DNA of 64,000 nucleotides from Hormiphora californensis. Lineage: Eukaryota; Animalia; Ctenophora. The DNA lies in contig CM035356.1 of NCBI GenBank assembly GCA_020137815.1, positions 1,364,001 to 1,428,000 on the forward strand, read 5' to 3'. The first letter of the stretch is position 1; each line of letters begins with the position of its first letter. The translations under genes and the position numbers were made by a program. The notes below the pieces were generated by a model. The model had not been told where the DNA came from. It saw nothing but the letters and a program-made list of their open reading frames with translations, and searched no databases. This document shows positions 6,436 through 59,435 of this stretch, piece after piece.

Positions 6436-6471
6436 AACTTTTCAACACTACTTTAAACAAATTAATTTGAG
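6436..6471 (+). other. Genomic copy of ctenophore spliced-leader exon (36 nt)
   Basis: AACTTTTCAACACTACTTTAAACAAATTAATTTGAG, identical to the copies at 16887-16922 and 58756-58791. Matches the Pleurobrachia SL as I recall it. Confidence 0.88.
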
Positions 6472-6492
6472 GTGCGGCATCCTCCACCTCAA

Positions 6493-7332
6493 ATGATTTC
6501 AGAAGATATGTCCTCTACAAATACAACTGAGGAACAACTGCGGATAATCTCGGAGCTGGTAGCTGAAGCGGATACCCCTGTCAAGGAGGTGCTCCAAGCC
6601 TATGATCCTGAGTTGACCTATGAGGAGATGCTACCGAAGATCGAAACACTCCCTGTAAGTGACCTAGAGGCTACTGCAGCTTTCCTCGGACAAGAGGTGA
6701 CATGTGTGACTGGAGCGAAAAAATACCACTCAGAGAGAACACTGTCAGACTGGATTATCATGAGGACTGAGGCTCTCTTTCCCCAAACATGTAGAGAGTG
6801 TAGTGAATCCTATACGGTGAAAAGGACTGATACACCCCCTGTTCGGTGTAACTATTGCGATGCTGGACTTCACAACTGTGCGGCTATCCGTGCTGAAGCT
6901 GGGAACACAACCAACACAAGGAGCCGAATATGGATGTGCAACGACTGTGTCTCAAAACATACTATTGAGAGGTTCAACAGTCACCTACCTGAGGGAGGTC
7001 CTCCAAACCCTACTCTTAATTCAACTCGACGCAGTTCAAATAGAGAGGTATTGGACAGAAGGACCAGTCAGCCTGCTGGCGGACGGAACGATCTTGCTGG
7101 CAGAAGGAATAATGGCCCACCTACCGGTGGAGATACAGGGTCGGACACGGAGGTTTGTAAATTCTACCTGCAGAGGAGATGCCGACACGGCAAAAACGGA
7201 ACCGCCAGGGTTGGAAACAGAACCTGCCCAAAAGCCCACCCCACCCTGTGTAAAAAGTTCTGTAACTATGGAACCATGAGGAGATTTGGATGTAATACTG
7301 AAAATTGCAACCTATTTCATCCTCCCCTTTAG
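6493..7332 (+). pseudogene. Non-LTR retrotransposon ORF1 (PHD finger + CCCH zinc fingers), 3'-truncated, SL-headed
   Basis: CNYCDAGLH..WMCNDC (PHD-like) and CKFYLQRRCRHG..CPKAHP..CKKF..GCNTENCNLFHP (CCCH), typical of CR1/L2-group ORF1. The frame ends abruptly at the junction with the host MITE. Confidence 0.75.
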
Positions 7333-9014
7333 CGGCTAAAGTAGGGTTAGGGTTAGGGGCTAGGGCTAAAGTTTAGCCCTAGCCCCTAACCCTAGAAACC
7401 GTTGCTTGGTGAATGGCGTGAATGGCAGTCTAACTTGGCAAAGAAACCGTGAGTGAATGTGTGTTGGCAAACGCTGCTGGCCATCGCTTGGGATAAGGCA
7501 GCGCTTTTCAAGACTGAGTGCTGACACTCAAAAAAGTAAAAACCCAGATTTGAACGTTTCCCAGTTGCAGCTGCAGTCTAGTGGTTATAAGGAACCATAA
7601 TAAAGTTCAAGAGCCTCCAAGAGCGCACCACAATCAAGAGAGACCAAAATCAAGAGCACACCACAATCAAGAGAGACCAAAATCAAGAGCACACCACAAT
7701 CAAGAGAGACCAAATCAAGAGCGCACCACAATCAAGAGAGACCAAATCAAGAGCGCACCTCATCCAAGAGAGCTCTCTATCCAGAAGATACCAGATGTGG
7801 TGCGCTCTTGAATTTGGTCTCTCTTGATTGTGGTGCGCTCTTGATTTGGTCTCTCTTGATTGTGGTGTGCTCTTGATTTTGGTCTCTCTTGATTGTGGTG
7901 TACGGTGGCTGATTCACGCCAACTTTTTTCTCGATGAAAAAATATCAAAGAAAAATTACGAAGAAAAATTTCAATGAAAAAAAACACACACAAACTTTTT
8001 TGGCGTGAATCAGCCACCAGCCATGGCTGATCTCCGCCAACGTTTCGCAAAAAAACATTGGCGTGAATCAGCCACCCCATGGCTGATCCACGCCAAGTGC
8101 GCGCGCGTGCGCACTGCTTACAACGCATGCTTTCATCATTACAATGTCCGCGCGCTCTTGTTACCCACGTGCTATACCGCCAAAAGTTCTACACTCACGT
8201 TTTTCCACCATACCAAACTCTGATATGAGATATCTGGGCCGGGTGTTGATATCTCATCTCAGTTGTACATTAGATATTAAAACAGTTAATTATTCGGCAG
8301 TTGAGGTAAATAAAATTTTTCCTATTACACTGAAAGAGTAAGACTGTACTGTCCAAATATTTGTCCAATCCTGGCACGGAACATCGAAGCATCATGGTGG
8401 CAGGTACTTGTCGATCAGGTTCAATGGGAATTGCCTCTCCGTCCTTTTCCTCGGTTTCGGTAAAAGAACCAAGGAACATATCGTGCATGATGTTCCACTG
8501 GACAGGAGCCACATATTTAGATGATCTCGCTGCCTGTAGGAGAGGGTGAGGGTTAGTTGATGTGTGTGGTGGTATCTATCAGATATAAAATCAAATATAA
8601 GATCTATGAGATATAAAATCATCAGCACCTAATATTTATATTAATTAGGCACCTAATATTTTCTTACCTGAGTCCTGATGATCAGCACTGGAATGAGTCA
8701 CAACTAGAATGTTCCGGGAGAGAGCGAAGCGAACTTGATAACATCCCTCTGAAAGGAATAGAATATTACTTATATACTTGTGTATAAAACCAGTTGTGAA
8801 TAGATCTGGATGGAGCCACGTACCTTGAGGGGATGGCCTGTGCTGGTGCTGTCACATGATCATAGTTTATCCAGAGGAATCCTGTTTCTGTTGCTATAGT
8901 CGGCTGTCTTGCCACTGTGGAGAGGGAAAGATTGATTGAAATAGTGATCAGAGAAAGATAAAAATAGAGTGGATTGTACAAAAAATGGGCAGGTAAGTAG
9001 ACCTTTGACCCTAA

Positions 9015-9461
9015 GGGCGCGATCACACAAGGATCTTCGAAACAATTGCTTCGAAGAACCAAGTTGAATCACACACAGATCTTTCCTTTAGTTGGTGCAA
9101 GTACGATCCTTATATGGAGCGAGCTCGCTCTCTCCAATGTTATCCCCTCTTTTGAGCTCTCTCTCCCACTCACTCTCTCTCTCTCGCGCGCAATTATCCC
9201 TTATATGGAGCGAGCTCGCTCTCTCCAATGTTATCCCCTCTTTCGAGCTCTCTCTCGCACTCACTCTCTCCCACGCAATTATCCCTTATATGGGGAGAAA
9301 AAGCGAGTGGGAGAGAGAGCTCGAAAGAGGGGATAACATTGGAGAGAGCGAGCTCGCTCCATATAAGGATCGTACTTGCACCAACTAAAGGAAAGATCTG
9401 TGTGTGATTCAACTTGGTTCTTCGAAGCAATTGTTTCGAAGATCTTGGTGTGATCACGCCC
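9015..9461. mobile_element. PIF/Harbinger-type foldback MITE
   Basis: GGGCGCGATCACAC...GTGTGATCACGCCC ends, TAA TSD (9012-14 and 9462-64), ~150-bp inverted arms. Confidence 0.88.
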
Positions 9462-9876
9462 TAATATAGGGCTGTTATATTCCCCCTAACTCATGACTGA
9501 TGATGTTAGCACGGTCACCATACTACTACTACTACGAGTGCCTGGGCTTGCCAACGGCAAGCCCACATAACAGGGGACTATAATCTCAAGTGATATCGCT
9601 GCAGCACTAGGAGAGCAGCCCCCCAATCCCCACGAAGAAACATGAAGTTACATCGGTGACCTGTCATCTGACACGAATCACTCGAAGGTGGCTCAAGGGT
9701 TGGAGGTGCGTCTCACCATTGCAACCAACTTACATCATTCAGCTGGGTATAAATCAGATCCACACTCTCCATATGGCTCACAAAGAGGAAGGTAGGTTCC
9801 TCCACCACACGCACGCTCAGGACAGGGATGGCCAGGATATCAGGATATGACTTCAGCAATTAGTAATATGTGTTAA

Positions 9877-11175
9877 GGGTACACCTCGGCGAAATTTTTG
9901 TCGAGTGCCCGCTTAGCTCACCATATGGGGTTGTAGGGCATACCCAGGGGACCTCAAATATGCAATTTTAGCCCTTAACTCGAATTCATATTTTTGCTAT
10001 AGCCCCTCAAAGTTGGAAAAAATAGGACCCTAAATCGCGGTTTTTAAGGTCCCTAAATTTTAATTTCAGGGCTAGAAGGCTGAAATTTTGGGGATTTGTA
10101 GAGGATACCAAGGTGTATCAGTCCAAGCGGTGATTTTTGAAATGGTGCTCAATTTTTTGTCTGAGACCATTTTACATTTTTTCGACTTTGAGGCCATATT
10201 TGGACATGTTCCTATGGACCGTTAAGGCTAAAAATCGGATATTTGGTGCTCCTAACAATTGTCAAAGTAGCCACAAATTTTCAGGAGGTCCGAATTTGAA
10301 ATGTGGCCTACAGGTTTCTTTTTGTAAAGCACATATTTTAGGAAAACTTAAAATGGCTATATCTCAAAAACGGTAGGTCCTAGCGATCTAATTTTGTGCT
10401 AAATCGATTCAGCGGATCCGATTTTGGGGGGGTTGTCTCATAGACATTTTGCTCTAAGTCTAACCGTTTTTTCAGAAATCGTATTTTAGATTTTTACACG
10501 TTTAGCAGAAATAGGTAAGATTAGCTCTAGCTAGAAGCATTTCTGCTAAACATGTACAAATCTTAAAATACGATTTCTGAAAAAACGGTTAGACTTAGAG
10601 CAAAATGTCTATGAGACAACCCCCCCAAAATCGGACCCGCTGAATCGATTAAGCACAAAATTAGATCGCTAAGACCTACCGTTTTTGAGATATAGCCATT
10701 TTAAGTTTTCCTAAAATATGTGCTTTACAAAAAGAAACCTGTAGGCCACATTTCAAATTCGGACCTCCTGAAAATTTGTGGCTACTTTGACAATTGTTAG
10801 GAGCACCAAATATCCGATTTTTAGCCTTAACGGTCCATAGGAACATGTCCAAATATGGCCTCAAAGTCGAAAAAATGTAAAATGGTCTCAGACAAAAAAT
10901 TGAGCACCATTTCAAAAATCACCGCTTGGGCTGATACACCTTGGTATCCTCTACAAATCCCCAAAATTTCAGCCTTCTAGCCCTGAAATTAAAATTTAGG
11001 GACCTTAAAAACCGCGATTTAGGGTCCTATTTTTTCCAACTTTGAGGGGCTATAGCAAAAATATGAATTCGAGTTAAGGGCTAAAATTTCATATTTGAGG
11101 TCCCCTGGGTATGCCCTACAACCCCATATGGTGAGCTAAGCGGGCACTCGACAAAAATTTCGCCGAGGTGTACCC
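9877..11175. mobile_element. 1.3-kb near-perfect foldback element, TTAA TSD, GG..CC ends (Kolobok-like)
   Basis: TTAA|GGGTACACC...GGTGTACCC|TTAA. Arms of ~636 bp with a ~26-bp spacer. Identical mirror ORFs at 10137(+) and 10915(-). Confidence 0.9.
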
Positions 11176-11533
11176 TTAATCTGTAATCAATGGACTCATG
11201 CCTGGAAAGGTAACCGAGTTTAGTGAATTCAAAATGGAATTGGTAAATTATGTAACAGTAGAAGTTGCTAAATGGACCTAATTTTCAATTCAACAGTGTA
11301 CTGCAGTCTTACAATGATAAGTACACAGATACAGTATTAATACACTGTACACTGTACACTGTAAACTGTACAGTGTACAGTGTCACATTGCAGCGAACAT
11401 TAGGCAAGTACTGCTACAGTATACTGGAATATTAGCATATGCTATTATGTATTATTACTCCTTGAGACCCACCTCAAAATATAATAGTAGTGGCATTTGA
11501 AGTCCGATAGCATTCACTTCATTTTCAGTTTAA

Positions 11534-16878: not shown

Positions 16879-16922
16879 GAGTTTCAAACTTTTCAACACT
16901 ACTTTAAACAAATTAATTTGAG
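16879..16922 (+). other. Longest (44 nt) genomic spliced-leader copy
   Basis: GAGTTTCAAACTTTTCAACACTACTTTAAACAAATTAATTTGAG, ~57 nt upstream of the ORF1 ATG. Confidence 0.9.
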
Positions 16923-33619: not shown

Positions 33620-34247
33620 CAGGGTGTTCATTTTGGATCTTTACAAGCATTGGGCTTCACCCAGAAAAAAGTTGACAAGATTAGGTCATGAAACTTCATA
33701 CTTGGACTATTCTATACCCTCATTCAAGGTTCCTGGGGGTTTTGGAGCTCTAGCACCCCGGCAAGTGTGTTTTTGGCATCAAAACTACCAGAAGGAATTT
33801 TTTGCTGGTGCTGAGACTTTGTTAAAATGTTTTTTGGGTATTTTCTATGTCAATCCTAAAGTTTGATGGAGATTGGATGTGTTTTTCGGACTCAAAATTT
33901 CGTAAAAAGACTCCATTTTTGCCGTTTTTGAGCTGTTTTCGAGCCTTTCCAGCCACTTTTTACGAAATTTTGAGTCCGAAAAACACATCCAATCTCCATG
34001 AAACTTTAGGATTGACATAGAAAATACCCAAAAAACATTTTAACAAAGTCTCAGCACCAGCACAAAATTCCTTCTGGTAGTTTTGATGCCAAAAACACAC
34101 TTGCCGGGGTGCTAGAGCTCCGAAAACACCAGGAACCTTGAATGAGGGTATACAATAGTCCAAGTATGGAGTTTCACAACCTAATCTTGTCAATTTTTTT
34201 TTCTGGGTGAAGCCCAACGCTTGTAAAGATCCAAAATGAACACCGTG
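33620..34247. mobile_element. Tc1/mariner-type foldback MITE
   Basis: TA|CAGGGTGTTCATTTTGGATC...GATCCAAAATGAACACCGTG|TA, with ~285-bp arms. Confidence 0.9.
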
Positions 34248-50068: not shown

Positions 50069-50443
50069 ATGCCTCTGACAAGTAGTGCCATCGCGAACAA
50101 CCTAATTCGGGATGTGTGGCGAGATAATCTTGAGGAGGAGTTTGAAAAGATCAGGCAACTTATCCAGACTTACAACTACGTATCCATTGGTAAACATCAG
50201 TAGTTGGAAAACTGTGAAACTAGGACAGTCACGTGACTGGCCTCGTTTCATGGTCACGTGACTGGCCTCGTTTCACAGTCACGTGATTCATGACGTCACA
50301 TGATTGCGTTCAACTGCAGATTACGTGATTATGATGTAAGCACGATGTAATCAAATTAATTCATGCAATTATGATAATTAATTTTCATAATTTATGACAT
50401 CACTGTGCTCAACCGCATGTCACTTATGACGTCACGTGACTGT

Positions 50444-50520
<77 letters not shown>

Positions 50521-53500
50521 ATGACTGCTCATGGAAGTCAACCGGAGAAAGCGCGTGTCGTTGCCGTTTTCATACAGCCAACCGTACCTATTACCCCATA
50601 TAGTCAGAGTGTAAACAATCTGTTTAAGGGGTAATTTAAATAAAACACATTACTCATCATCACTTTCACTCTCACATTCTTCTGCTTCAAAAGGATAGAA
50701 TTTCTAAGTTGAGCTGGGAAACGGGTCCATTTTTTCGGGACCTAAATCTATTTTTAGTAACACCCGTTGGTCGAGTGATGCATACCCGCCTTTCACTCTC
50801 AAGGTCCGTGGTTCGAATCCTGCGCTTGCCAACTTTTCGAAACACGGATTTAAATATTAGTTCACAAGTTCATCACAACCAAAAAGAACAGCACCACAGC
50901 CAAAAGGTACCATACATGATTAATTATGTCAAAACAGTTGGCACTGACAAGGGACAAGGATCACTATAGAGAAAACATGTTTGATCCTGACAGCCAAGCG
51001 TACTTACGTTTGGCTGTCAGGGTACATAACACAGCCAAAAGTTGAGCACCACAGACAAAAGTTGAGCACCACAACCAAAAAGTACAACACCACAGACAAA
51101 AGTTGAGCACCATAGGCAAAAAAGTACAGCACCACAGCTAAAAGTTGAGAACGACAGTCAAAAATTGAGCACCATAGAAAAAAGTACAGCACCACAGCCA
51201 AAAAGTACAGCGCCACAGAACAATGTTGAGCACCACAGATGCCAGAGAAAAGGCTAATAAGCCATGTACCTATAAAAGGGTGAGCATTTTCAATCATTTC
51301 AATCATAATAATCATACTATTATTAAAGCAAATAGGGAAATCCTGTGTGACGTTTTTTACCTTATATGGCATTTAGCACGTGCAGGTTTAGAGGTCGACT
51401 GTGGAGTACTATTGGAGTGGGGCCAGGGGTCGGAGCCGTTGCCAATGGCATGGTTGCTACTATACTGCACGTGCACGTGCATTTGATCTTGCTTTAGTTT
51501 GTGTCACCAGCTAATATAAATGCTCTCTTCAACAACTGTTGATATACGACAGCGACAATTGGAGTTATTCACGCAAGATCTCACCGCCATTCTCTACTTT
51601 TCCATACACTGGAAAGTTCTTTTATAACTTTGATCGCCTGATCATCATCTGACGTTCTGAAACCAGAAACTCGCAGCGATCCCGCCTGAGCTCCTTCTAC
51701 GGTACCGTAACTTAAGACGGGATAGTGCATGTCATTAGTTAGACTGATGATGTCAGTGTTCCCTAATCCAGCTACCAATACCATTTCCCCGAAATTCGCC
51801 CGTAGGGCGAACGGGTTTACTAGTAATAATAATATTAAGTTTTGTATACCGCCACAGACACGACAGGGCCAGATAAGTAAAACTGTACCTGACACTGACG
51901 AGCTTCAGAGCGGTATACCTAACGCAAAAAAGATCCTTATATTCTTACACACTTTGGAAAAACTCACTCCTAATTGTAGATATACTAAAAAGATAACTGG
52001 TCACATAACTTTCAAAAAACTGATGAGATGGAAAAAATACAGACTTTATTAAATAAAGGGAACAAAGCCAACAACCCACACTTATCAGCAGCTCAACAAT
52101 ACTGATAAAAAGCCCTAAGTGAAAGTGGTGAGCACACCTAAAGACCGCCTACTGACAGATGGGGAGTCCGGTGATCAACTCAGACGCCACCACCGGGAAG
52201 TCTTCAGGGGTAGGAGCTGGGAACGCTTCAAGGAAAAGTCTGGTTTTCAACTTAGATTTGAACAACTCAATGGGGTGTACAGATCTCAGGTCCAAAGGCA
52301 AGGAGTTCCAAACTGTCGGTAGACACCGAACCCTCCTCCTCCTCAGTTTAGAGTTTGCATTAACGCTCGAGAGTTTAGGATATTTCAGTTTGTAGAAGTC
52401 AATTACTGAATTCGCCCTCGTTGGTCTCATACCCAGAATATCATCATCCCTAGGGACCAGTTCCTGTAAATACTCCGGAGCTGTTCCACTACAATTTTGT
52501 ACGCTAACAGGCAGGCCTTGAAGGTTAGTCTCTGCTTGATTGGGAGGATATGAGCTTCCTTGAAATACTCATCATAGCTATCCTGATGTCCTCGTAAGTT
52601 ATGATGAACCGTACACAGGAGTTCAGAACCTTCTGAAGGTTGTTCAGAATCCGTTTAGGGAGTCCAAAGTACAGGAATTACAGTAGTCTATCTTTGATAT
52701 GACTAATTGCTTCACAAGAAGAATCCGTGTGCTATTATCTAAACACTTATTGAGTTGCCATGGTTCTTGAGTTGCAATCCACATTGTTTCTTAACATTGT
52801 TCACCTGCCTCTCCAGGGTGAGATGCTCATCCAGAAGTATTCCTAGAGTCTTCCCTGTGCTACCTTTGCATTCCATCGGCTGCAGCACTGTACCTCCAAA
52901 CCTGATTTCCGGATCGAATACCAGCTTCTCAAGAGAGCTTGATTTTCCAAGAAGAACAAACTCAGTCTTACTCTCATTACATTTGAGCCAATGTTGCACC
53001 ATCCAAACCAATTAAGAAGTGATAAAAGGTGGGGCCCTGTATCTTGAGAACGAGAGGGAGTAGAGAGTTCGCACTTCGACTCATCGTATTTTTATCTCCC
53101 AACCAGTTACCACACCCAGGATCGTTGAAAAAGTCAAAATTTTTTGAATATGTCAGTATCCCTTTAATGGAAGCGAGGCACTCCTCGATACTATTCTCGT
53201 ACCTTTCCACCCTTCACTATCCGTTGGACAAGTCCAACGTACAATTGGGAATCATCTGCATACAGCTTTATCATCAACCATACGGTCTAGCAATATCCTG
53301 TACTCCTCTATGTACAACAGAAACAGTACAGACCAACAAAGATCCCTGTGGTACTCCACATATGAGAGCGATGACCTCCGAGAGTTCACCATGAACATTC
53401 ACTCTGTAACTCCTGGAACTCAAATAACTCTTAAACCACCCAAGTGCACTTCCCTTCACTCCACCTCACCTCCAGCACCTCCATCAGCTTCATGATCTAC

Positions 53501-56500
53501 AGTATCGAAAGCTGCGCTCATGTCCAAGAGCATGAGTGCCGCACTTTCCCAGAATCAGTTCTCTCAGCAAGTCTCAAACATTCCAGCCAGGAGAGTCTCG
53601 CAGCTGTGACCAGTACGGTAGCCCGACTGATTGGCATTCAGTAAGTCATTTTTCTGTAGATAGTCATTCATTTGATTCAATACCACCTTTTCCAAGACTT
53701 TTGAAACAAAGCAATGTTGACACAGGGCGATAGTTGGCAAGAAATCTCTATCTCCTCGATTCTTTGTTATCGTTGGCATGACAACTGCCTCTGCAGGGGC
53801 TCAGGTACTGAAGCTCTGCACAGTGACTTGTTAATGATAGTCGTTAACGCAGGCGCCAACTCCTCTAGACAATCCTTCACCAGCCACGTTGGAACTGGAT
53901 CTAGATCACACGACTTAGATGACATCTGCTTCACAATGTGAACAAGATCTTTCTGCGAGATCTCCTCAAACTGAGTCAGCTCACAATCAGGCCTTGATGA
54001 ACCACCACTTCCAGTTCCTCTTACATCTTCACCACTCACACCTCCTCTTCTAGTTCCTCTTACATCTTCACCACTCACCCCACTTCCTGTTCCACTTACA
54101 TCTTCACTACTCCCACTTCCAGTTCCACTTACACCTTCACCACTCACACTGCCACTTCCAGTTCCAATCATGAATACTGACACTTTGAATAAAGTATTGT
54201 TTAACAACCCTACTACAAGAAAGTACTTTATTGGAACTTTTCCGGCTTGTGCCCCTATTCGTTCTCGTAAAAAGACTTATGGATTTATTACAAACACTGA
54301 CCGCCATGATAGACCAGGGCAACATTGGTGTGCTTGGTGGATTCAAGATGGAAAAGCCTTGTTCTTCGACTCATTTGGACGGCCACCCACCCACGATTCC
54401 TTCCCTAGGGATTTTTATAAGTTATCACGTAATTATAACAGCTGTAAGTATATTCCTCGGGCTGTGCAATTGGTGGGTACTACAAGTTTGGACATTTTTG
54501 TGCACATTTTATGTATGAAATGAGTTCCAAGAAAAGAGTGGATCGCTTCTTATCGTGGTATAAAGATTTGAAAACAATGATGAGATTGTTCGTGCCAAGT
54601 TTAAACGCTTTAAACACGGGTTTTACTGTTAGAGAAAAAAAAAACTAATCACAACACACCGTCTTCAAAAACTCAATGTTTTTCCCACTGTTCTAAAATA
54701 GCAACAAAGTCTTTTGTATAGTCCATAAAGAGTACCTTGATATCCGCAACCGATTTTCGGTTTACCAGCTGTATTATCTTGCGTTGAGTTGAACTTAGTC
54801 GAGAATTTTGAAAACCCACTGGAAACGATACCATAGTGTATGCCAATAAACAGTTTTTTGATCGCTTTAAGGTATTGGTGTTTTGAACCTTTCCAACTGT
54901 TTGCCATAAGGAGTCGATGAACCTCGAGAAAGTCAGCTATTTTGTTTGGATAATATTGACTCGGAAAACTCTTTGCTCGGTGTGTCCCTTTCTTTAACCT
55001 GCTTTTCGAAAATTGATATCCGCTCCAATGATCTCGACATTCGCTTGCTTTTTGCCGATAATCGTTTCAAATCTATGGATCTGAAAATCCTTCATTTTGA
55101 AATCTTTACAAATTCCTCTTTGTCAACATCTGTGTAGGGAACATCTGTGTGGTCCAACAAAACTCGAGTATGAGAGCGGTGATAGAATTTCGACAGAAAA
55201 CGAGATATCATGATGATGGAAATGGCAACAACACGAAGACTCTGCTTTTATGCTATTTTACGATCACACTATCCTTCTTATATCCTCTTCGTTGGATATT
55301 ACATTGTGCATCAGGTGTTTTCTCATGATGATACACTTTTGAACTTACTGGACGCTTTATTGGCACTTTCTGTTAGAAATACATCTCCCACATAAAGTCT
55401 GCTTCCAATAGCCGCGCTGAATTAGCAATACCGCAAAATTGATGGACTCGCAGATTTCAAACATCAGCCTCAAGCAAGTGCATCATACGTGTGTCGCAAT
55501 AGATCATAAATAGAGGATAGAGAATCACACATTGATCCATCATCTGAATCAGAAATATCAACTTGACGAGACTCTGCCATGATTGGAAATGGAGAGCAAA
55601 TGTATTCTACTCTTATATACCCATCTTCATGTCAACCATTTTTCCGAATTATTCTAAAGTTTAGCCAAGCGAAACTTTCTCCTTTGACGTTTTCTTTTCG
55701 GTCTTGCATATCTTGTTATAGCTGCATTGGGTCTATATGTCTGAATCATGTTTTCTGCTCCAGCCCTAGCTGCTGTTGCCACCCCTTTGATGGCTGAACT
55801 TAGGATCGGAAGAGCACCACGAAATATAGAAGCGAGGAAACCACCTATTCCTTCTCCATTCTGTGTATACACATAATATCCATCACTATTATAACCAGAT
55901 CCGTGTTGGTTAATTATGCGAGAGTATGCAGCAACGTTTTTGTAGTCAACTTCTTCCATTTTGAGAATCACTAGTTTGCCAGCTATTTATAGTGGGCTGT
56001 GGTGCTCAACTTTTTGTCTATGATGTTCGATATTGTTCTGTGGTGCTCAACTTTTTGTCTATGGTGCTCGATATTGTTCTGTGGTGCTCAACTTTTTGTC
56101 TATGGTGCTCGATATTGTTCTGTGGTGGTCAACTTTTTGTCTATGGTGCTCGATATTGTTCTGTGGTGCTGTAGTTTTTGACTGTGGTGCTCAATTTTGT
56201 CGGTGGTGCTGTACTTTTTGGATGTGGTGCTGTACTACGTTTGCCAGCTATTTATTTGTACTTTTTGACTGTGACGTTGTTCTTTTGTCTATGGTGCTGT
56301 ACGTTGTATTGGGGCTATGTCGCTCTACTTTTTTTTTATGCGAGAGTATGCAGCAACGTTTTTGTAGTCAACTTCTTCCATTTTGAGAATCACTAGTTTG
56401 CCAGCTATTTATAGTGGGCTGTGGTGCTCAACCTTTTTGTCTATGATGTTCGATATTGTTCTGTGGTGCTCAACTTTTTATCTATGGTGCTCGATATTGT

Positions 56501-58177
56501 TCTGTGGTGCTCAACTTTTTGTCTATGGTGCTCGATATTGTTCTGTGGTGCTCAACTTTTTGTCTATGGTGCTCGATATTGTTCTGTGGTGCTCAACTTT
56601 TTGTCTATGGTGCTCGATATTGTTCTGTGGTGCTGTACTTTTTGGATGTGGTGCTGTACTACGTTTGCCAGCTATTTATTTGTACTTTTTGACTGTGACG
56701 TTGTTCTTTTGTCTATGGTGATGTACGTTGTATTGGGGCTATGTCGCTCTACTTTTTGGGTTGTGTTGCTCAACTCTCCTCTAGAGTTTATTTACTTGTA
56801 TTAATTGGTTTCCTTTTTATAACACTCCCACCACTATTTATAGCAAGCTATAGTGAATGGAAAAAATATGGACGAATTTCTGCAAACGTACCCGAATATC
56901 TCCATGATCTGTACCGTGAAAACGGTTCACGATTCGGAAGATTTGTAAGTAGCAAGCTAAGGATGTCTACCATTTTCCAGTTTTACCGAGTGATAAAATT
57001 GCTCACAAAGTGGACGAAGTCTTAAACAATATATAAAATGATATCAAAATAAATGTTAGATTCGGTTCTGCTTGATCCAAGAAATACTGGTGAGATCAAG
57101 TTTTCTCGTCCTTCAAACAACCCTAATGTATTTGACACCGCGAAGCTAGTATCTCAATGTGACCCAAAGGACGTTCAGAGAATTAAGGAAAACATTGGGT
57201 GGGATGATTTGATAGAAATAGCGCATAATTCAAGAGATTCACCAGCTTGGAGAGTAGAGGCAATCGTCTGTATTGAATTTGATGTAACAAAAATATACTT
57301 AACAAATGTACTATAATTATGTTGCAATATCAATAGACATTGGAAAACTAGCTGTACGTTGTTGGTAGCTGTATTATTATTAAACGTTAACTAAAAAATG
57401 TGTTTGATTTGTATGGGTAGGGAATGGTTTTCTCTGGCATCTGTGGTGGTCAACTTTTTGACTATGGTGCTCAAATTTTATCTATGGTGTTGTACTTTTT
57501 GGCTGTGGTGCTGTACTTTTTGTCTATGGTGCTCAACTTTTGTCTTTCGTTCTGTACTTTTTGGCTGTGGTGCTGTACTTTTTGCCTATGGTGCTCAACG
57601 TTGTCTGTGGTGTTGTACTTTTTGGTTGTGGTGCTCAACTTTTGTCTGTGGTGCTCAACTTTGGCTGTGTTATGTACCCTGACAGCCAAACGTAAGTACG
57701 CTTGGCTGTCAGGATCAAACATGTTTTCTCTATAGTGATCCTTATCCCTTGTCTGCCAACTGTTTTGACATAATTAATCATGTATGGTACTTTTGGCTGT
57801 GGTGCTGTTCTTTTTTGTTGTGATGAACTTGTGAACTAATATTTAAATCCGTGTTTCGAAAAGTTGGCAAGCGCAGGATTCGAACCACGGACTTGGAGAG
57901 TGAAAGCGGTTATGCATCACTCACCAACTTTACTAAAATATTTAGTCCCAAAAATAACCCGTTTCCCCCAGCTCAACTTAGAAATTCTATCCTTTTGAAG
58001 CAAAGAATGTGAGAGTGAAAGTGATGATGAGTATGTTTTTTATTTAATTACCCCTTACCCCTTTTTTTACTCTTTATTCGGTTTACTTTTGGCTGTATGA
58101 AAACGGCAACGACACGCGCTTTCTCCGGTTGACTTCCATGAGCATAATAATATTCTCTCTCTCTCTCTCTCTCTTCT

Positions 58178-58231
<54 letters not shown>

Positions 58232-59435
58232 GTCTCTCTCTCGATCCTCACCGCACGTACGTCATAAGTGACATGCGGTTGAGCACAGTGATGTCATAAA
58301 TTATGAAAATTAATTATCATAATTGCATGAATTAATTTGATTACATCGTGCTTACATCATAATCACGTAATCTGCAGTTGAACGCAATCATGTGACGTCA
58401 TGAATCACGTGACTGTGAAACGAGGCCAGTCACGTGACCATGAAACGAGGCCAGTCACGTGACTGTCCTAGTTTCACAGTTTTCCAACTACTAACATCAT
58501 TTTAATTGATAGGTGATATTTCCCTCATTCGGAAAGCTACAGTTAAATTTATAGCAGCTAATAAATTAGTTGCATTATGAAATATGATATTATATATCTT
58601 TGCAGTCCTGAGATTAAATCCCTCTCCGTGTGTAGATACTGAGTTTCCTGGTGTAGTGGCGCGACCTTGTGGGGAGTTCCGATCTCAGAATGACTACACC
58701 TACCAGCTACTGAAAGTGAACGTTGACATGCTCAAGATTATACAGCTAGGTATAAAACTTTTCAACACTACTTTAAACAAATTAATTTGAGCACTGATGA
58801 GCGGAATGTTACATTCTGTGAAACATATGTTTGCACTTTGCGTAAATCTCCGTGTTTCATTTCTACTAGGTATAACAATGATTGTTATAATTTGCGTTAC
58901 CTGCACTTCTTAAGGAATCATGCCATACAAGGCCTTGTGAGCAGAATCTAAATATTTAACCGGCGGAGAGTGGAGAGAATGATCGAGAGAGAGAGTGGAG
59001 AGATAAAGAGAGAGAGATAGATAGTGGTGAGAGATAGAGAGTTGATAGTTAGTGAGTGAGCGAAAGAGGGAGAGAATTGAGAGTTGCGAGATAGTGAATC
59101 AGCGAGAAAGAGTTGAGAGGGAGTAAACGGTTGGTTAGAATTTGCTCGCTAAACAAATCGCAGGAGCTTAATACGTTGCATTGTGGACGACCTTAAATGT
59201 CAAAATGATTCTCGAATAGAAACTTCCTCCCTGGAATTGAAATTACCCATTAAAATGGGGGGGGGGGGGGTAAATACCGTCATTCTCTCGCTGATTATAA
59301 TAATCGCGAGAATGATTTATGTATTATGCCAAAAACTAACAGAAATTAGTTGGCTGGAAAGGTGACCACTTTTGTTGTCAAACTGACACCTTTGCCCTCT
59401 CCGGGTTTCATCATTATCTTTCCCTCTCTGATTTA

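Follow-up and report, generated by a model that had tools for sequence, protein, structure and literature searches.

A spliced leader joined to a minimal hammerhead motif in a dispersed family of short insertions in the ctenophore Hormiphora californensis

The insertion and its parts

The window considered here is a stretch of 64,000 nucleotides from the ctenophore Hormiphora californensis (assembly GCA_020137815.1, contig CM035356.1, positions 1,364,001 to 1,428,000), in which an insertion of 110 nt, devoid of poly(A), lies between two copies of the 10-bp direct repeat CTAGGTATAA (58746-58755 and 58866-58875). A first-pass annotation had placed a spliced leader (SL), two further nucleotides, a hammerhead-type core and a flanking repeat at 58746..58875, and we verified these coordinates. 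The parts of the locus are the following:

58746..58755, + strand: left 10-bp direct repeat, a putative target-site duplication (TSD); its final base is common to the SL
58755..58791, + strand: ctenophore SL exon, 5′-truncated by 7 nt; all 37 of 37 nt match the 3′ portion of the full copy
58783..58793, + strand: 5′ strand of helix I (predicted pairing), made of the SL 3′ end plus CA
58794..58800, + strand: hammerhead core box CUGAUGA, with no substitution among those listed in the aligned contigs
58801..58819, + strand: helix II, 8 pairs with a 3-nt loop; varies among copies, with pairing mostly retained
58820..58831, + strand: GAAA box, palindromic mini helix III CAUAUG, U16.1 and H17; H17 is U here and C in some copies
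after 58831, + strand: predicted ribozyme cut site
58832..58838, + strand: 7-nt near-tandem duplication, private to the window allele; its exact placement within 58830-58838 is ambiguous
58839..58847, + strand: helix I, 3′ strand, as it pairs (by prediction) in the family's common form
58848..58869, + strand: pyrimidine-rich, acceptor-like 3′ tail ending in YAG; copies end at 58863-58869, without poly(A)
58866..58875, + strand: right 10-bp direct repeat; its initial 1-4 nt are also found at the ends of other copies

As a random expectation, a 10-nt left flank recurs within 2 kb for 4.35% of 20,000 positions, or for 0.37% if a fixed narrow window is taken. The annotation had spoken of a perfect 10-bp TSD around an element without poly(A); both the repeat and the absence of poly(A) are as described, but the right-hand copy is probably not target sequence throughout. 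In the aligned public contigs, other copies share sequence with the window through 58868-58869. For instance, run X6 contains unbranched pieces identical through 58868 and 58869, at depths of 875 and 490 versus 360 for the locus-specific flank, and one copy in run X1 diverges only past 58868. Thus, 1-4 nt of the right-hand repeat probably belong to the element too, as microhomology, and the start that this repeat has in common with other copies would reflect either pairing of the RNA end with the target or a site preference of the enzyme. As no contig or joint for an empty site was seen in any run aligned to the locus, the TSD is read from the repeat itself.

An element of about 8.3 kb (50199-58492) ends 253 nt to the left of the insertion. 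It has terminal inverted repeats of about 1 kb with 90% identity as well as internal 41-bp and 21-bp tandem repeats, and no transposase match came from the frames scanned. Elsewhere in the window, there are long, near-perfect inverted repeats of a MITE- or foldback-like kind at 9873-11179 (616-nt arms), 33665-34200 (245) and 9014-9462 (168).

The spliced leader

A 44-nt trans-spliced leader has been printed for H. californensis (PMC8527503), and positions 58755-58791 are its last 37 nt, as well as those of a full 44-nt copy at 16879-16922; a third copy in the window lies at 6436-6471. In the insertion, the leader ends in AG and is followed by CA, with no GT donor or intron, so that it represents a spliced product in DNA. 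Identity as an SL RNA gene, in which a GT donor and an intron would follow the leader exon, was accordingly ruled out. The terminal bases of the leader are GAG, not YAG.

Besides the hammerhead insertion, the window holds two further SL-headed insertions. In one of them (16879-~18041), the full 44-nt leader is followed by an intact ORF, whose 322 aa were searched without a match in Pfam or PDB. There are 24 homologues, with identities of 40-100%, and most of them lie on contigs 1.0-2.0 kb long. By eye, the product resembles a LINE ORF1 protein. The unit is about 1.16 kb long, has a 7-bp candidate TSD and possibly represents an SL-headed, ORF1-only mobile family. In the other (6436-7332), a 5′-truncated leader (36 nt) precedes GT and a frame of 288 codons, whose Cys/His clusters by eye resemble PHD and CCCH fingers; this insertion has no clear TSD, and a telomere-like TTAGGG hairpin lies just downstream.

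The leader at 58755-58791 is covered in each DNA run by hundreds of contigs with unrelated sequence on both sides (643 in X1 and 483 in X5), and SL-headed insertions may, judging from these contigs, be a major repeat class of the genome. A total of 718 genomic leader copies has been reported for a ctenophore (PMC8527503), many of which may be retro-insertions rather than SL genes. Searches for the leader in viral and prokaryote contig collections gave 0 and 0 matches. Run X13, presumed to be RNA, covers the SL part alone, which has no bearing on expression.

The hammerhead motif

After the leader, the order is CA, CTGATGA (58794-58800), stem II, GAAA, CATATG, TT (with H17 at 58831) and TGC, in which stem II is formed by 58801-58808 and 58812-58819, with 8 pairs, including two G.U, and a 3-nt loop. 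The core therefore has the CUGANGA ... GAAA ... NUH arrangement of the minimal type I hammerheads of Penelope-like elements (PLEs), and the palindromic mini helix III, with a predicted self-duplex of -11.4 kcal/mol, would permit dimers. The architecture that the first-pass annotation had described (CUGAUGA, an 8-bp stem II, GAAA, palindromic CAUAUG and then GUU) is thus a real minimal-hammerhead architecture. The motif is unique in the window, with both strands searched, and the same descriptor gave 0 matches in 5,000,000 nt of first-order Markov sequence.

The G10.1-C11.1 pair is a G.U in the H. californensis copies and a G-C in one X9 contig and in the X12 contig, both from a second organism. 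There is no unpaired base between positions 9 and 10.1, as G58801 pairs with 58819, and this extra base before helix II is also missing in two rows of the published table of PLE hammerheads (PMC4209133). In 20 of the 44 visible rows of that table, H17 is U; by this analogy, GUU is normal for the class. The suggestion that GUU marks an inactive copy is thus not supported: copies with GUC exist in the family, and the likely lesion is the 7-nt duplication.

An Rfam scan, which the annotation had proposed, gave no hammerhead match of weight in the element and none above the gathering threshold; the best entry was RAGATH-1, misaligned, with 13.8 bits (E 5.3) against a threshold of 56.3. Scanning 3.5 kb around the locus gave nothing at the insertion, and the window copy alone folds no better than its shuffles (z = -0.40). 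An ATG inside the core starts a frame of 12-13 codons (58797-58845), and three reconstructed forms share the TAA that closes it; in the window copy, this frame is left open by the 7-nt duplication.

A dispersed family of copies

Copies were read as differences in public contigs aligned to the locus, in 7 of 13 listed runs. These come from two samples of H. californensis, the second of which (runs X5 and X6) belongs to another study, and from a second comb-jelly species (X9 and X12). A metatranscriptome run, X7, was excluded, having one contig on the left flank only, at a depth of 2.2. In X1, the flanks are covered by single contigs, with depths of 257 and 307, and many contigs pile on 58790-58869. 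By count, H. californensis has 8 different 3′ continuations, the window included, some of which are possibly alleles, and the second species has 5 aligned contigs in X9 and 1 in X12. The second sample has a right junction identical to that of the window (58839-58975, 0 differences). The copies are dispersed monomers and few in number, which confirms a low-copy, dispersed family in both samples of H. californensis and in a second comb jelly. The search for family members that the annotation had called for has thus yielded a multi-copy, non-coding retro-element with copies in two organisms, rather than a single-copy sequence.

In metagenome collections, the exact hammerhead stretch gave 0 matches, and a degenerate pattern of the element gave 0 and 0 in two collection scans. 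A loose pattern of SL end plus core matched 25 loci that we attribute to chance, as only 4-14 of 31 upstream bases match the leader and stem II has at most 5 pairs (at most 2 in 24 of the 25).

The 5′ ends of the copies are scattered (58755/6, 58780, 58783, 58790 in two contigs, 58797 and 58839). In further contigs, the leader continues beyond the aligned stretch. The 3′ ends mostly fall within 7 nt (58863-58869), and one copy stops just past 58834. Scattered 5′ ends with clustered 3′ ends are what target-primed reverse transcription leaves behind. The listed loose ends show neither poly(A) nor a shared continuation past 58869; one X9 copy has a TA-repeat flank. Dispersed copies and 5′ truncation are thus seen in the family, and a TSD is seen for the window copy alone. 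For two contigs in X1, the match begins precisely with the AG at 58790, and the sequences upstream are non-SL and mutually unrelated; none of the X6 contigs listed starts there. The head of the element is an SL exon, with no Rfam match to a tRNA, 7SL or 5S head, and for this reason a classical SINE with such a head and an internal Pol III promoter was rejected.

One X6 contig starts at 58839, where the common form is predicted to be cut; this single case, at the 31-nt detection limit, gives a weak hint of cleavage in vivo. In two sub-types, the tail closes with a pyrimidine run and TAG or CAG, and several copies terminate at the AG of the tail or immediately ahead of it, as would be expected if both ends were made by the spliceosome, that is, if an RNA capped with the leader at a first acceptor were released at a second one and the resulting capped, tail-less RNA of about 115 nt were reverse-transcribed. 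However, AU-rich sequence past the hammerhead is the published PLE consensus (PMC4209133), so the resemblance of the tail to a second acceptor may, by analogy, be only that usual flank, and the ends scatter over 58863-58869, with the copy stopping past 58834 in addition. We consider this origin, which could be combined with either of the two main readings given below, improbable.

The annotation had also considered a retrozyme, and a type I hammerhead, the lack of an ORF and an acceptor-like tail would agree with a non-LTR retrozyme, tandem or circular, in which the acceptor comes from the array junction. Nevertheless, only dispersed monomers are seen: none of the joints listed in the 7 aligned runs is head-to-tail, and the element is single-copy in the window. 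The unit would be about 70 nt, versus 170-400 nt published (PMC7229834). A helix I formed across a tandem array was likewise rejected, since the 3′ strand finds a poorer partner in the 3′ end of the element itself (predicted -2.3 versus -5.2 kcal/mol). All of this makes a tandem retrozyme very improbable.

Constraint and covariation

The list of substitutions is partial, with changes near contig ends hidden, and the counts given here refer to those listed. Of the 38 positions between 58794 and 58831, nine are substituted, and all 11 fixed positions of the core are spared (p = 0.029). In helix II, one contig type found in X1 and X6 combines G58808A with C58812T, a compensatory change from G-C to A-U; the same type has C at H17 and therefore GUC. 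An explanation of this double change as an inversion of the loop was rejected on inspection. G58803A, C58816T and T58819C retain pairing and T58817A breaks a pair, so that 5 of the 6 listed changes in stem II keep it. The listed indels upstream of the cut are confined to the tip of helix II (58808-58811). The check for covariance among copies that the annotation had envisaged thus gave a positive outcome for helix II.

These observations weigh on the idea that the motif is a chance look-alike within an ordinary SL retrocopy, with which the lack of Rfam support and the unremarkable fold of the window copy would agree. As the descriptor found nothing in 5 Mb of simulated sequence, and the core is unchanged and the stems kept in two organisms, this idea is already largely refuted and deserves hardly any credence.

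They also bear on whether the insertions derive from a host gene or ncRNA with a domesticated hammerhead, whose trans-spliced 5′ end would have been retrocopied by a LINE or other enzyme, as for the other SL-headed insertions of the window. Conservation in two organisms at low copy number would suit such an origin, as would the unrelated SL-headed insertions in the window and their abundance in contigs. In contrast, the narrow 3′ end without poly(A), the several sub-types and the compensatory change fit a mobile family better, and we find a host RNA source improbable.

The 7-nt duplication and the pairing of the leader in helix I

Most of the contigs read past H17 lack the extra 7 nt of the window, and we call this the common form; it accounts for 5587 of 9261 depth units in X1, 2047 of 2047 in X5 and 1009 of 1057 in X6. 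One 61-nt contig in X1 matches the window exactly at a depth of 281, and since it carries the extra 7 nt, these bases are real. As the second sample has the same right junction and no contig with the 7 nt, the duplication most likely arose after the insertion.

The annotation had given stem I only 3 bp. For the common form, the predicted helix I consists of 3 pairs, then an A.G mismatch and a further 5 pairs, each of these with the leader, so that it reaches into the SL with 8 of 9 positions paired, 6 of them by SL bases. None of 863 controls, which are acceptor-like upstream stretches from the window, equals this pairing ungapped (0/863); by energy, 47 of the 863 (5.4%) do as well as the SL. 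In other types, the match is less consistent. A type represented by a 1339-nt contig in X1 has 7 contiguous pairs with the leader, which ranks 57 of 863 (6.6%) by energy, and the contig itself is without an SL; for the X12 type, the leader is ordinary by energy (330 of 863). In folds of the whole element, the probability of the extended helix I is 0.27 for the common form, 0.6 for the GUC form and 0 for the window form, and it is about 0 in partial reconstructions of the X1 1339-nt and X12 types, which counts against a uniformly SL-stabilised fold. Thus, modelling suggests that the leader participates in helix I in the main type, and this falls short of being established for the family.

The 7-nt duplication is predicted to remove the extension of helix I. 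The window copy is atypical and probably damaged, and in these models the duplication is the likely lesion.

Origin of the copies

The explanation that we favour, to which we give about an even chance, is that the window holds a damaged member of a dispersed SL-plus-hammerhead family, whose copies arose when the 5′ end of a trans-spliced Penelope-like RNA was written into new sites by a PLE-type reverse transcriptase. PLEs are present in ctenophores (PMC8557442, supplement). In Drosophila virilis, an intron in the 5′-UTR of Penelope extends up to the 5′ end of helix I, and the ribozyme thus exists in both a spliced and an unspliced version (PMC4209133). A PLE enzyme has been found in vitro to start reverse transcription inside its own RNA, downstream of the hammerhead and on mostly uncut RNA, and the PLE ribozyme needs the protein (PMC11167929). 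A ctenophore PLE that took the leader at such an acceptor would leave short copies consisting of leader, hammerhead and tail.

Under this explanation, the splice acceptor of a source locus would lie 2 nt ahead of the hammerhead core, much like that of the D. virilis intron, and in a ctenophore it would receive the SL, which would supply the predicted outer part of helix I. The ribozyme would be slow as a monomer owing to the 6-nt palindrome of helix III, and mostly uncut RNA would then serve as the template. Nicked target DNA, sharing 1-4 nt with the RNA, would prime reverse transcription about 25-31 nt beyond the cut, and synthesis would run toward the cap, often stopping inside the SL. The window allele would later have gained the 7 nt seen in it, with the predicted break of the helix I extension. 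The pair of X1 contigs whose match begins at 58790 could be such unspliced sources, as their non-SL upstream sequence would suggest; alternatively, they could be plain truncations, their upstream sequences being unrelated.

Several points speak against a PLE source of this kind. No parent was found: 20 + 96 window frames (189 frames of at least 75 aa passed the filter) gave no RT or GIY-YIG Pfam match, with none in the insertion either, and the 14-nt core motif is absent from the accessible supplement of PMC8557442. PLEs usually keep introns on transposition (PMC8557442), whereas the hammerhead copies are spliced. The PLE enzyme of the anole also begins farther from its hammerhead, and with no target homology (PMC11167929). 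Furthermore, nearly all of the common-form depth in X6 is joined to the leader (983 versus 1009, depth not being copy number), which, together with the lack of a listed start at 58790 in that run, would fit self-propagation as well or better.

Such self-propagation would make the family a self-renewing, SL-headed SINE, in which genomic copies act as sources, read-through RNA is remade with the AG of the genomic leader as the acceptor or simply keeps its SL, a PLE enzyme copies the product and the leader is a built-in arm of the ribozyme. The depth in the second sample is in its favour (in X5, 867 in one contig, with the same caution on depth), and so are the several sub-types with an SL end in two organisms, the 8 of 9 helix I pairs that no ungapped control equals, the 7 contiguous pairs of the X1 1339-nt type and the repeated SL-tagged retroposition known in dinoflagellates (PMC6050394). 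Nevertheless, dozens of controls match the leader by energy in these two types, and in the X12 type the leader is undistinguished; the 7-pair type was seen in a contig without an SL; the leader ends in GAG, not YAG; and the copy number is low. In addition, the UAA that pairs with the leader is also the stop of the 12-13 codon frame in three reconstructed forms, another possible cause of its conservation. We regard this origin as a serious alternative that is, on balance, unlikely.

In a bolder form of it, a promoter-less element of about 115 nt would be a ribozyme parasite armed by splicing: the trans-spliceosome would generate its 5′ end, possibly its 3′ end as well, the leader would complete helix I, and each genomic copy could remake the RNA at the AG of the leader. 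We hold this to be doubtful; if it were true, host trans-splicing would both renew the element and switch its ribozyme on.

The leader marks the 5′ end of an RNA in DNA, and the copies would record the form of the template, which appears to have been spliced RNA that was for the most part uncut, although a minority may have been cleaved at the ribozyme site. The role of the hammerhead in PLEs has been described as unclear (PMC8557442), and since the copies record the form of their template, it could be approached by counting junctions in ctenophore assemblies. If the leader does complete helix I, we would be looking at a natural ribozyme assembled by trans-splicing.

Comparison with known systems

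The closest known counterparts of the motif are the minimal type I hammerheads of PLEs described by Cervera and de la Pena (2014, PMC4209133), with which it shares the core boxes, the long helix II, the palindromic mini helix III, the short helix I, the AU-rich flanks and the mostly solo, dispersed copies. The D. virilis variant reported there also has a splice junction a few bases before the core. In contrast to these hammerheads, here the junction is to a trans-spliced leader and the spliced form sits in the genome, there is no unpaired base before helix II, and no linked RT/EN ORF was found. The words Mnemiopsis, Pleurobrachia and ctenophor are absent from two supplementary files of that paper. 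PAc, a Poseidon PLE from Anolis (Frangieh et al. 2024, PMC11167929), likewise has its 3′ end at a fixed place downstream of the hammerhead, lacks poly(A) and uses an uncut template; however, PAc starts 111-118 nt into the ORF without target homology, whereas in the family described here the end lies 25-31 nt past the cut, with an apparent overlap of 1-4 nt.

Metazoan non-LTR retrozymes (PMC7229834, bioRxiv 10.64898/2026.07.22.740005) are similar in being non-coding, in having a type I hammerhead, in their proposed PLE dependence and in the occurrence of solo monomers, but they form tandem units of 170-400 nt that are expressed as circles, and no tandem joint is seen here. The terms "spliced leader" and "ctenophor" are absent from the accessible text of both reports. 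The schistosome SINE-like elements Sm-alpha and Sj-alpha (PMC2770079) are also short hammerhead-bearing repeats of a trans-splicing animal, although they reach tens of thousands of copies, unlike the low-copy family found here, and the accessible text mentions no SL head. The SL-tagged retrogenes of dinoflagellates (PMC6050394) and the snRNA-headed SINEU (PMC4494074) share a head derived from a spliceosomal small RNA without a known internal promoter; their bodies are genes or LINE tails without a ribozyme, whereas here the head is predicted to pair into one.

The first-pass annotation knew of no description of a union of a leader with a hammerhead, and we found no such fusion in the literature, in which Repbase, subscription papers or supplements could hold an annotation of this kind. 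Each part is known on its own, namely, the minimal hammerheads of PLEs, splice junctions at helix I and SL-tagged retrocopies (PMC6050394), and it is their combination in a single short element that appears to be new.
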